This document shows, piece after piece, positions 10,951 through 14,244 of a stretch of DNA of 64,000 nt. Below the pieces are notes generated by a model. It was given only the letters and a program-made list of their open reading frames with translations, searched no databases and was not told where the DNA came from. The translations under genes and the position numbers were made by a program. This DNA comes from Escherichia coli (lineage in GTDB: Bacteria; Pseudomonadota; Gammaproteobacteria; Enterobacterales; Enterobacteriaceae), in the NCBI RefSeq assembly GCF_003991155.1, contig NZ_CP031293.1. The stretch is one strand, 5' to 3'. Each line of letters starts with the position of its first letter. Within the stretch, counting starts at the first letter, position 1.

Positions 10951-11168
10951 TTATATCAAAACAACTCTTAGTTATTGATAATTAAGATTAACCTCCGCCA
11001 TTAAAATAGTGGGCACTGACGAGCACTCGTTGTGCTTTCTTTGTTTACCATCCCATACTTATCTTCCTGAACATGTTCATATGCCAAAATATCTTCTAAT
11101 ACTTTCGTGACGCTATCCGGTTTATGAAATACACTGATGTAAGATTTTTACTTACAGGCGGGTGTAAA

Positions 11169-11420
11169 ATGGCCAGAACGATGACGGTTGATCTCGGCGA
11201 TGAGTTGCGTGAATTTATCGAGTCCTTAATTGAATCCGGCGACTATCGCACCCAAAGCGAAGTGATCCGTGAGTCGCTGCGCTTACTTCGAGAAAAGCAA
11301 GCAGAGTCTCGCCTGCAAGCGTTACGTGACATGCTCGCTGAAGGGTTGAGTAGTGGTGAAGCTCAGCCGTGGGAAAAGGACGCGTTTTTACGGAAGGTGA
11401 AAGCAGGGATAAGGAAATAA
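11169..11420 (+). CDS. ParD/RHH-family type II antitoxin
   Basis: Small ORF with ParD-like sequence (SEVIRESLRLLREKQ...LQALR..L.EG..SG); in-frame ATG at 11169 chosen from the 11124 ORF; stop 1 nt before the toxin start. Confidence 0.75.
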   Translation: MARTMTVDLGDELREFIESLIESGDYRTQSEVIRESLRLLREKQAESRLQALRDMLAEGLSSGEAQPWEKDAFLRKVKAGIRK

Positions 11421-11421
11421 T

Positions 11422-11718
11422 GTGCGTACTATAAAACTCATGCCAAAAGCCAATGAGGATTTAGAAGGCATCTGGTATTACAGCTATCACCATTTCGGCG
11501 AACCACAAGCCGACAGATATGTGGAACATCTTTCAGACGTTCTCCAGATTCTGAGTAACAATAATATAGGTACGCCCAGACCTGAATTAGGCGAAGGTAT
11601 TTTTGTTCTTCCTTTTGAACGCCACGTAATTTATTTCCTGCAATCGCCAGAGGAAATTATCGTCATTCGTATCCTTAACCAAAACCAGGACGCCTCCAGA
11701 CATTTACACTGGAGCTAA
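11422..11718 (+). CDS. ParE/RelE-superfamily type II toxin
   Basis: 98-aa ORF (GTG start) directly after the antitoxin; ParE-like motifs (EDLEGIWYY...GEPQADRYV...GTPRPELG); alternative ATG at 11440. Confidence 0.75.
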   Translation: MRTIKLMPKANEDLEGIWYYSYHHFGEPQADRYVEHLSDVLQILSNNNIGTPRPELGEGIFVLPFERHVIYFLQSPEEIIVIRILNQNQDASRHLHWS

Positions 11719-11820: not shown

Positions 11821-13182
11821 ATGTTTAAACCGGAACTCCTTTCCCCGGCGGGAACGCTGAAAAATATGCGTTACGCTTTCGCTTATGGCGCAGATGCTGT
11901 TTATGCGGGCCAGCCGCGTTACTCCCTGCGTGTGCGCAACAACGAATTCAACCACGAAAATCTCCAGCTCGGCATCAATGAAGCCCACGCGCTGGGGAAA
12001 AAGTTTTATGTCGTGGTCAACATTGCACCGCACAACGCCAAGCTGAAAACCTTTATCCGTGACCTGAAACCGGTGGTGGAGATGGGGCCGGATGCGCTGA
12101 TTATGTCCGATCCAGGGCTGATTATGCTGGTGCGCGAGCACTTCCCTGAAATGCCGATCCACCTCTCGGTGCAGGCTAACGCCGTGAACTGGGCGACGGT
12201 GAAATTCTGGCAGCAAATGGGACTGACCCGCGTGATCCTCTCTCGCGAGCTGTCGCTGGAAGAGATTGAAGAGATCCGTAATCAGGTGCCGGATATGGAG
12301 ATCGAGATCTTCGTTCACGGTGCGCTGTGCATGGCCTACTCCGGTCGCTGCCTGCTCTCTGGCTATATCAACAAGCGCGACCCGAACCAGGGCACCTGCA
12401 CCAACGCCTGCCGCTGGGAGTACAACGTCCAGGAAGGGAAAGAAGATGACGTTGGCAACATCGTGCACAAGTACGAGCCGATTCCGGTGCAAAATGTTGA
12501 GCCGACGCTGGGCATCGGCGCGCCAACCGACAAAGTGTTTATGATCGAAGAAGCTCAGCGTCCGGGCGAGTATATGACTGCGTTTGAAGATGAGCACGGC
12601 ACTTACATCATGAACTCGAAAGATCTGCGCGCTATCGCCCACGTTGAACGCCTGACCAAAATGGGCGTGCATTCGCTGAAAATCGAAGGTCGTACAAAAT
12701 CTTTCTACTATTGCGCACGCACCGCGCAGGTTTACCGTAAAGCTATCGATGACGCAGCTGCGGGAAAACCATTCGATACCAGCCTGCTGGAAACTCTGGA
12801 AGGTCTGGCGCATCGTGGCTATACCGAAGGTTTCCTGCGTCGTCATACTCACGACGATTATCAGAACTACGAATACGGTTATTCAGTTTCTGACCGCCAG
12901 CAGTTTGTTGGTGAGTTTACCGGTGAGCGCAAGGGCGACCTCGCGGCGGTAGCGGTGAAAAATAAATTCTCCGTTGGCGACAGCCTTGAGCTGATGACGC
13001 CGCAAGGGAACATTAACTTTACCCTTGAGCATATGGAAAACGCCAAAGGCGAAGCAATGCCGGTCGCACCGGGCGATGGTTATACTGTGTGGATCCCGGT
13101 GCCGCAGGATCTTGAGCTAAATTACGCGCTGCTGATGCGTAATTTCTCCGGGGAAACCACGCGTAACCCCCACGGTAAGTGA
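11821..13182 (+). CDS. trhP: Peptidase U32-family protein YegQ (tRNA hydroxylation protein TrhP)
   Basis: 453-aa ORF with U32 collagenase-family sequence; conserved neighbour of yegP and cyaR. Confidence 0.9.
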   Translation: MFKPELLSPAGTLKNMRYAFAYGADAVYAGQPRYSLRVRNNEFNHENLQLGINEAHALGKKFYVVVNIAPHNAKLKTFIRDLKPVVEMGPDALIMSDPGLIMLVREHFPEMPIHLSVQANAVNWATVKFWQQMGLTRVILSRELSLEEIEEIRNQVPDMEIEIFVHGALCMAYSGRCLLSGYINKRDPNQGTCTNACRWEYNVQEGKEDDVGNIVHKYEPIPVQNVEPTLGIGAPTDKVFMIEEAQRPGEYMTAFEDEHGTYIMNSKDLRAIAHVERLTKMGVHSLKIEGRTKSFYYCARTAQVYRKAIDDAAAGKPFDTSLLETLEGLAHRGYTEGFLRRHTHDDYQNYEYGYSVSDRQQFVGEFTGERKGDLAAVAVKNKFSVGDSLELMTPQGNINFTLEHMENAKGEAMPVAPGDGYTVWIPVPQDLELNYALLMRNFSGETTRNPHGK

Positions 13183-13266
13183 TTAATTTCGATTATTTTT
13201 CCCGGATGGAAAATTCTTAGAAACCGATCACATACAGCTGCATTTATTAAGGTTATCATCCGTTTC

Positions 13267-13353
13267 GCTGAAAAACATAACCCATAAAATGCTAGCTGTA
13301 CCAGGAACCACCTCCTTAGCCTGTGTAATCTCCCTTACACGGGCTTATTTTTT
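13267..13353 (+). ncRNA. cyaR: CyaR (RyeE) Hfq-dependent sRNA
   Basis: 87-nt sequence GCTGAAAAACATAACCCATAAAATGCTAGCTGTACCAGGAACCACCTCCTTAGCCTGTGTAATCTCCCTTACACGGGCTTATTTTTT matches my memory of CyaR, including the terminal hairpin and U-run. Confidence 0.85.
13327..13353 (-). other. Phage P2-type attB core overlapping the cyaR terminator
   Basis: Reverse complement reads AAAAAATAAGCCCGTGTAAGGGAGATT, which I recall as the P2 att core; no prophage genes follow. Confidence 0.55.
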
Positions 13354-13511
13354 ATGCATAAGCCCTATCTCTGGTAACCGTCTTCCATTGACCACATCGA
13401 TAGAATCTCCCTTCATAGCACGATGCCTTTCACTTATTGGCATCGTGCTCGCACAGGTTCCGGTTACGCACAGCCAGAACGCGCATGTTTGACGCTTACC
13501 AAAAAATATTC

Positions 13512-13829
13512 TCACTCTCCACATTTGAATGTCAGACGAGCGACGCCATGTAATCCTGCACCTTCTGTCTTCAATTTAACTATCTGCATTTTTTTGCCCT
13601 GTGTAACACAGAAATGAACTGCATCATTTTTTACTATATTTTCTGCACCAGATATTCTACCCCTGGCTAAAGAAGCTTCGGCTTCGGTGTAGTATTGGTT
13701 ATCGAGTTTACGCTGAATATTACTTTTATATGCAAGACCAAATTTACCGATACTTGTCTCATCATTATGTACAGCACACCCAGACATAAGAAAAACACTA
13801 ATTAATGATATAGCAGCTATCTTTTTCAT
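13512..13829 (-). CDS. yegR: Lipoprotein YegR
   Basis: Start taken at MKKIAAISLISVFLMSGC (lipobox) inside the 13512..13889 ORF; 105 aa. Confidence 0.8.
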   Translation of the reverse strand: MKKIAAISLISVFLMSGCAVHNDETSIGKFGLAYKSNIQRKLDNQYYTEAEASLARGRISGAENIVKNDAVHFCVTQGKKMQIVKLKTEGAGLHGVARLTFKCGE

Positions 13830-14244
13830 CTTACCTTCCCCCATTAAATACCAACGACACGCTCTGGTGTTTAAATATAATAATGGCATGATTATTATAA
13901 TTGAATAGGATTATAATAAATGTTCTGTACAACATTTCCTACATAAGTAGGAATTACATACACGGATGCCCTTCCGGGTAACCCCATGGGGGGGGGGTAA
14001 TATATTTTTAATAGTAGATTGAAGATGCCACTGTTTAGTTGAATATTAGGTATATGCTCTTTTTTGAAATTTATCGGTGGCTGCCGTTAATATTCGCTGT
14101 TCCCATTGCAAGCTCCTGGTGGTAACCACTGAATCCCCATACCTGAACTGACTTTTTATCCTCCGACTTTCATCCTGTTCTGACTCCACCTTTTCTTTTC
14201 TGCTCTACACTATCTACAGACCAATCATAAAGGCACATACGATC

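Follow-up and report, generated by a model that had tools for sequence, protein, structure and literature searches.

The unoccupied P2 attachment site at the cyaR terminator of Escherichia coli and a flank probably left by a much older P2-family prophage

The terminator of the small RNA gene cyaR is the preferred attachment site of bacteriophage P2 in Escherichia coli; K-12 blocks the site with a remnant, and most other strains have it free. The classical host is E. coli C, where P2 uses a site called locI, and in the P2 literature of Haggard-Ljungquist and co-workers this locI is reportedly the primary attB, with a 27-bp core identical to that of attP. An empty attB, the identity of its core with the 3' end of cyaR and the presence of a remnant in K-12 are all already established. 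Other temperate elements also enter the 3' ends of RNA genes, with phage 186 in tRNA-Ile and Fels-2/SopE-phi in ssrA (PMC3448106), and small RNA loci are known to serve as phage attachment sites, including the sdsR locus in Salmonella (PMC3333887). In the tRNA, tmRNA and sRNA systems, and likewise at cyaR, the element carries a copy of the 3' end of the gene, so that the RNA gene is intact after insertion; such sites are reused repeatedly, and relics accumulate in them. Unlike those systems, cyaR shares only a short segment with its phage, 27 bp that take in the terminator alone and no structured functional domain.

Here we examined a 64,000-nucleotide stretch of E. coli DNA, referred to below as the window, which is 100% identical to E. 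coli 2016C-3878 (NZ_CP029747, whose RefSeq annotation was used for the neighbouring genes). The features discussed are collected in Table 1. A match to the CyaR/RyeE family of Rfam (RF00112) was found at 13265-13350 on the plus strand (100.7 bits, E=6.7e-20, against a gathering score of 47), covering model positions 1-85 of 85 without truncation, which places the gene in the family. The preliminary description of this DNA had started cyaR at 13267, at the 5' end GCUGAAAAAC, and Rfam starts it at 13265. A terminator scan located a stem-loop at 13318-13345, followed by a T run. The window holds a single copy of the 27-mer AAAAAATAAGCCCGTGTAAGGGAGATT, on the minus strand and with 0 mismatches, and none of 100 shuffled controls contained it at up to 3 mismatches. 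From the Rfam placement of cyaR, the 27-mer corresponds to the loop of the terminator, the 3' (descending) half of its stem and the U tract. That this sequence is the P2 attachment core had been put forward earlier, together with its position at the cyaR 3' end, and both points hold: the Rfam placement supports the second, and the P2 reference NC_001895 carries the annotations "attP" and "Int, attP core" at 24356-24382/3, which the window matches at 100% (27/27). On one side of the core, the P2 annotation places the IHF site, the P arm and the ogr terminator, and on the other side the Cox sites, the P' arm and int.

Table 1. Positions of the genes and the attachment-site features at the cyaR-yegS locus, in window coordinates.
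Feature	Position	Strand	Basis
yegQ (trhP), 453 aa, conserved neighbour upstream of cyaR	11821-13182	+	ORF and RefSeq annotation
cyaR (ryeE) sRNA gene, including the U tract	13265-13353	+	Rfam RF00112 and terminator scan
P2-type attB core (locI), unoccupied	13327-13353		27/27 against the P2 attP core
E. coli-specific low-GC island, from cyaR core to yegS leader	13354-14157		GC content and comparison with other species
Putative degraded P2-family attP P arm (attR-type remnant)	13366-13404	+	Alignments, blastn, nhmmer, genomic controls
Core-like stretch	13404-13438	+	Gapped alignment over all 27 core positions, control p=2e-4
11-bp perfect inverted repeat, AGCACGATGCC ... GGCATCGTGCT, downstream of the yegR stop	13417-13449		Sequence reading
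yegR, 105-aa predicted lipoprotein (signal peptide and Cys18), orphan-like	13512-13829	-	ORF and RefSeq annotation
P'-proximal-like stretch (Cox-binding side)	14102-14131	+	Anchored pairwise alignment with P2
Putative decayed second att core (attL-type)	14132-14157	+	AATC-CCCATACCTGAACTGACTTTTT, 19/27 with one gap
Ancestral yegS leader	14164-14244	+	Aligns with the sequence directly after cyaR in L126 and L128
yegS, 299 aa	14245-15144	+	ORF and annotation

When the whole P2 genome was compared with the whole window, the 28-nt core was the sole match, and the sequence runs without a break from cyaR through the core into the yegR-side flank; the site is unoccupied, as had been proposed. The roughly 160 bp of non-coding DNA said to separate cyaR from yegR proved to be 158 bp from the core to the yegR stop codon, and this interval (13354-13511) has no protein-level similarity to any of the P2 gene products. 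Across the island as a whole, no similarity to Ogr, gpD or Int was found. The sequence at 13327-13353 is the known primary P2 attB, which we take to be locI from the P2 GenBank annotation and the background literature, and it is currently empty, which is the ordinary majority state in the species. The locus is contiguous through the core in 4,207 of 5,423 complete E. coli genomes (78%) and contiguous within 1.2 kb in 4,564 (84%), the larger figure adding small remnants of the K-12 type, which are present in ~7% of the 5,423. In ~859 genomes of the same set (~16%) the locus is split, and the breaks fall at the two edges of the core (query 628/654, equivalent to 13327/13353). Two split genomes were inspected, and both contain P2-like prophages: the junction in ECE313 reads cox, C, int, core and yegR, and that in elppa10 reads yegQ, cyaR, core, ogr, D, U and T. 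A lysogen junction at the core was also seen in 720R8. With the site unoccupied here and prophages inserted exactly at the core in other members of the species, the attB of the present strain is a plausible free integration target, and a phage with a P2 integrase would have its preferred target available.

Two variants at this locus were observed in passing. Several strains (R3, 20AR0479, Esc23, 875, MS20655 and CFSAN067215) have a 170-bp AT-rich insertion by the yegR stop, at about position 13507 of the window (1308-1478 in L003, the locus of strain R3). In R3 the core itself differs by one G-to-A substitution (26/27), by which the G-U pair in the cyaR stem becomes A-U.

Nothing material separates the present site from the locI of E. 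coli C: the 27-bp core is identical, the locus between yegQ/cyaR and yegR is shared, and the flank is that of C122, so that this is one and the same site in another strain. In E. coli C122 the site is empty, with an exact core and one extra T in the U tract, and its flank has ~7 differences from that of the window over ~250 aligned nt (counted by eye). Genome comparison also bore out the earlier statement that K-12 has a cryptic P2 remnant between cyaR and yegR, consisting of ogrK and a gene D fragment, which the present strain lacks. The order in a K-12-lineage genome is the cyaR core, the P2 IHF site, the P arm, the ogr terminator, ogrK, truncated gene D and a partial second core, after which the flank known from the window resumes. 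The cryptic ogrK-yegZ remnant opens with an attR junction of the same type as that discussed below (cyaR, core, IHF site, P arm, ogr terminator). Unlike K-12, the window is without ogrK and the gene D fragment and has only an older P arm in a far more degraded state; K-12 possesses this old arm too, downstream of its partial second core.

This older P arm qualifies one part of the preliminary description, which had found no prophage remnant before yegR. No prophage and no ogrK/yegZ are present, as stated, but a degraded P arm of the P2 family lies there and can be aligned with the P arms of P2, three further peduoviruses and the K-12 remnant. Its longest conserved piece is a 15-nt exact match, CATTGACCACATCGA (13386-13400), that includes one arm-type Int site, GACCACA, at 13390-13396. 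The published arm-site consensus is tgTGGaCa (PMC3448106), and GACCACA is its reverse complement. One of the two arm repeats has been kept, and the IHF-site segment is missing from the remnant (16-nt gap). Against the whole 33.6 kb P2 genome, the P arm is the only significant match of the island (blastn, E=0.002). An nhmmer profile built from 12 P2-family P arms, with the core excluded, returned the remnant as the top match in the 64-kb window (E=0.015, the next at E=4), and its pairwise score of 22 was not approached by any of 4,344 genomic control segments, the highest of which scored 16. The island at 13354-14157 would accordingly open in the manner of an attR-type junction, with the core followed by a P arm that contains an arm-type Int site. 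The description had also raised hidden remnant genes in 13354-13511 as something that would speak against it; the remnant in that interval is non-coding, so no such gene was found.

Directly after the P arm comes a core-like stretch, the first 10 nt of which exactly repeat the 5' end of the core (AATCTCCCTT), while the remainder aligns with three small gaps. It is possibly the vestige of a further core copy. Under a model of nested integrations a second P arm might follow it, and this candidate was rejected (pairwise p=0.36-0.47, no nhmmer match). The inverted repeat that overlaps the stretch has no T run on either strand, and the terminator scan called no intrinsic terminator there.

The far end of the island offers the counterpart of the attR-type side. 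Only 6 nt lie between the end of a decayed second core and the start of the ancestral yegS leader, and this 6-nt offset to CGACTTTCATCC equals that of the real core in Escherichia sp. E1V33 (L128). Aligned without gaps at this fixed offset, the decayed core agrees with the P2 core at 16/27 positions in the window, at 18/27 in both K-12 and C122 and at 19/27 in ECE313. For 19/27 or better the binomial probability is 4e-6, the overall range being about 4e-6 to 2e-5, and only one other of the 128,000 positions in the window reaches 18/27 against the core. By these alignments, the opposite boundary of the island appears to hold the second core expected of an attL. Immediately before it, 14102-14131 agrees with the 30 nt directly to the left of the P2 attP core at 21/30 positions with one gap, and it has no recognisable arm repeats. 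In the anchored alignment this P'-proximal stretch scores 11, whereas none of 7,396 genomic control segments scores above 7. An nhmmer profile of five P' sides gave no match at the island, and we rate this similarity as supportive only; derivation of the stretch from a P2-like P' side is supported but not conclusive. A pseudo-cyaR at the right end of the island, which a multiple alignment had brought up, was rejected because under stringent local alignment it did not rise above the shuffled and genomic controls. The same right-end stretch matches the P2 P'-proximal sequence better than it matches cyaR.

Could these resemblances be coincidences in AT-rich DNA? Each match is indeed short (30-40 nt at ~70% identity), the E value from nhmmer is modest, and the profile of the P' side is null. 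However, there are three independent matches, each at the sole position and in the sole orientation that the att model predicts, and both arms exceed every one of their genomic controls. The second core, at its fixed offset, has the low binomial probabilities given above, and it is a stronger match in other lineages (18-19/27 in K-12, C122 and ECE313) than in the window. We regard chance as an exceedingly improbable source of the att-arm and second-core matches.

The history of the interval is also recorded in other species. Scanning species-representative genomes for the cyaR pattern yielded at least 120 loci. Among the matches listed (120 species loci), nearly all have yegQ upstream of cyaR, and where yegS is still close by, its start lies in most cases ~74-150 nt beyond the cyaR terminator; the short cyaR-yegS loci among the matches listed span Pectobacterium, Serratia, Klebsiella and Enterobacter. 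YegR and the island are absent from all of the 120 Enterobacterales species loci among the matches listed. Two non-coli Escherichia clades, represented by E69 (L126) and E1V33 (L128), have cyaR abutting a yegS that is 85-87% identical to that of the window. The sequence CGACTTTCATCCTG, which begins at 14164 in the window and directly follows cyaR in both of these clades, is separated from the core in E. coli by the island. The island is ~0.8 kb long with a GC content of 0.39, compared with 0.49 for the window. Its absence from the sister taxa (L126, L128 and E. albertii, L010) and its atypical composition are what an insertion would leave. Essentially every one of the 5,423 E. coli genomes has the island, and none has a pristine cyaR-yegS junction. 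The single shortened copy among these genomes is in FDAARGOS_1077 (L139), where most of yegR is gone (window 13479-13772) while the P-arm remnant and the decayed core still mark the two ends of the island; that strain can therefore do without yegR.

These comparisons bear on the interpretation adopted in the preliminary description, in which the attB is pristine and was never occupied, and the 158 bp and yegR are ordinary host DNA with no phage history. The island has no phage genes and no protein-level similarity to P2, its arrangement is uniform across E. coli and yegR is annotated as a normal chromosomal gene, all of which would fit. A P-arm remnant nevertheless adjoins the core directly, the yegR region is absent among the matches listed (120 species loci), where cyaR abuts yegS, and the far boundary of a low-GC island has a decayed second core and a P'-like stretch. 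We consider a pristine site quite unlikely.

The best explanation, in our judgement a highly probable one, is that the window has an unoccupied locI attB together with a flank, 13354-14157 including yegR, left from a much older P2-family prophage. The narrower proposal that the island is the eroded scar of such a prophage seems likely and is moderately well supported. Most likely, the "empty" attB is the surviving attR-side core of an ancient and almost fully eroded P2-family prophage that became fixed in E. coli. As is established for P2, and as we infer for the present strain, Int with IHF would pair the 27-bp attP core with the identical host core and exchange strands within it. Since the phage brings an identical copy of the core, cyaR would be rebuilt at the ogr-side junction (cyaR, core, P arm, ogr and onwards), and a second core would come to lie at the int-side junction, next to yegR. 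A P2-family phage may have entered the cyaR core in this way in an ancestor of E. coli, after its split from the cryptic clades and E. albertii, and the prophage would then have eroded to ~0.8 kb with the loss of its phage genes. The cyaR-side core would have stayed intact because it is the terminator of the sRNA and thus under selection on cyaR, and the other copy, on the yegS side, would have decayed. In the outcome, the attR side would survive as an intact core with a degraded P arm and the attL side as a P'-proximal stretch with a decayed core. K-12 would represent a further and younger layer, with ogrK and the truncated D lodged between the cyaR core and the old P arm.

Several observations were counted against this explanation. 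The island shows no homology to P2 proteins, YegR is not found in the phage collection beyond two records with host flank, the P' profile is null and the E value of the P arm is only 0.015. One integration does not account for the additional core-like stretch at 13404-13438. In a tblastn comparison of all reading frames of the island with P2, nothing significant was found except translated P-arm DNA, and thus no recognisable phage genes.

The place of yegR in this history deserves separate treatment. The gene has a GC content of 0.37, and homologues of YegR occur almost only in E. coli and Shigella, with a few distant ones in unrelated contexts, between IS elements or in plain chromosomal surroundings and not in prophages. 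Pfam gave no match for YegR, and NCBIfam only signal-peptide noise. By tblastn against 50,697 phage records, only two records were matched, and both include host flank. YegR was accordingly rejected as a recognisable phage protein, the matches being a prophage extraction and the "Phage TP" record with its host flank; the layout of ogr and flank in the latter looks like a chromosomal region of the K-12 type. The phage records H41 and H42, in which the host flank might have been taken for the phage's own P arm, were set aside, as they carry yegR, yegS and yegQ and are host DNA there. Within the prophage model, yegR may be surviving cargo or a later arrival, and because YegR was not found in sequenced phages, we infer this step of its origin. 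In either case, the position of this uncharacterised gene, specific to E. coli, is probably due to an integration of this kind.

Alternatively, the att fragments could be the scars of one or more P2-family integrations, with yegR and the AT-rich DNA arriving independently, for instance through recombination or on some other element, and never having been phage cargo. The absence of YegR from sequenced phages and the position of its distant homologues by IS elements or in plain chromosome would agree with a composite of this kind, as would the core-like stretch at 13404-13438, which hints at more than one event, and K-12 indeed stacks relics of different ages at the cyaR site. Yet the limits of the island coincide exactly with the core and the decayed core, the P-side and P'-side remnants are in the right order and orientation, and one integration with an internal deletion is more parsimonious. 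E. albertii, moreover, retains cargo between remnants of the same sort. We hold the composite origin to be possible but rather doubtful, and the eroded prophage remains the reading that we prefer.

The E. albertii case is a direct parallel to that prophage. In E. albertii NBRC 107761 (L010, 4930-8420), cdtA, cdtB and cdtC lie in a 3.3-kb island between cyaR and yegS, with a truncated P2-type attR on one side and, on the other, an attL with a 25/27 core and a P' nearly identical to that of P2, followed by the same yegS leader. This island is a P2-family prophage reduced to its toxin cargo. As is proposed for the yegR island, it holds non-phage cargo between P2-type att remnants at the cyaR core, here a truncated attR and a near-intact attL, with the phage genes lost. 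It differs in being much younger than the E. coli island and in carrying a toxin operon that is well known, which cannot be said of yegR, a gene not known from phages. Remnants similar to those of E. albertii are present at the same locus in Enterobacter sp. Bisph1 and Citrobacter youngae.

More generally, an attR of the P2 family directly follows cyaR in Citrobacter, Trabulsiella, Buttiauxella, Enterobacter sp. Bisph1 and E. albertii, and since this is the case in several genera, the cyaR terminator is a pan-enterobacterial target of P2-family phages. The target core varies with the local sequence of the stem. The gap between cyaR and yegS is a recurrent hotspot for insertion. Many lineages of the Enterobacterales have cyaR-yegS insertions of their own, of 0.6-5 kb (L022, L023, L027, L043, L058, L060, L069, L082, L085 and L111), and weak copies of a second core were noticed in some such insertions (21/27 in L060, 18/27 in L043). 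In the P2-family prophages or remnants of Citrobacter youngae (L026 and L032), extra ORFs of 201 aa and 63 aa were observed between the P arm and ogr, at +100 to +1050 after the core, and these suggest an att-proximal position for cargo in some P2-like phages.

Taken across the Enterobacterales, an sRNA terminator has acted as a reusable docking site, at which relics of different ages stack up: the old P arm, the ogrK/yegZ remnant of K-12 and the cdt island of E. albertii. This carries a caution, as the shortest interval observed, when taken as the "empty attB", may itself be a scar. A more far-reaching version of the proposal is that the canonical locI is no naive attB in any E. coli, the C strain included, but an attR junction inherited from a fossil P2-family prophage, with yegR as its last surviving cargo, now fixed in the species, and that the retained Int site may still bind; we think this unlikely. 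More speculatively, the GACCACA motif at 13390-13396, ~37 bp beyond the core, may bind the N-terminal domain of Int and so aid the strong preference of P2 for locI over secondary sites. In the full text of the literature covered, we found no paper linking cyaR with the P2 attachment site, the locI flank with a P arm or yegR with a remnant; coverage was limited and had gaps, so this is weak evidence that the fossil is novel. The fossil, if new, would be a further prophage scar at a reused att site.

Two minor features of the window lie outside this argument. Where the island is AT-rich, a short terminator-like hairpin, ACCCCATGGGGGGGGGGT (13981-13998), contains ten consecutive G residues and has T-rich sequence after it. 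Just upstream of yegQ is a toxin-antitoxin pair of the parDE type, with ParD (PF03693) at 11124-11420 and ParE (PF05016) at 11422-11718. The gap between yegP and yegQ is only ~150 bp in elppa10, and the parDE pair therefore appears to be a strain-variable insertion.
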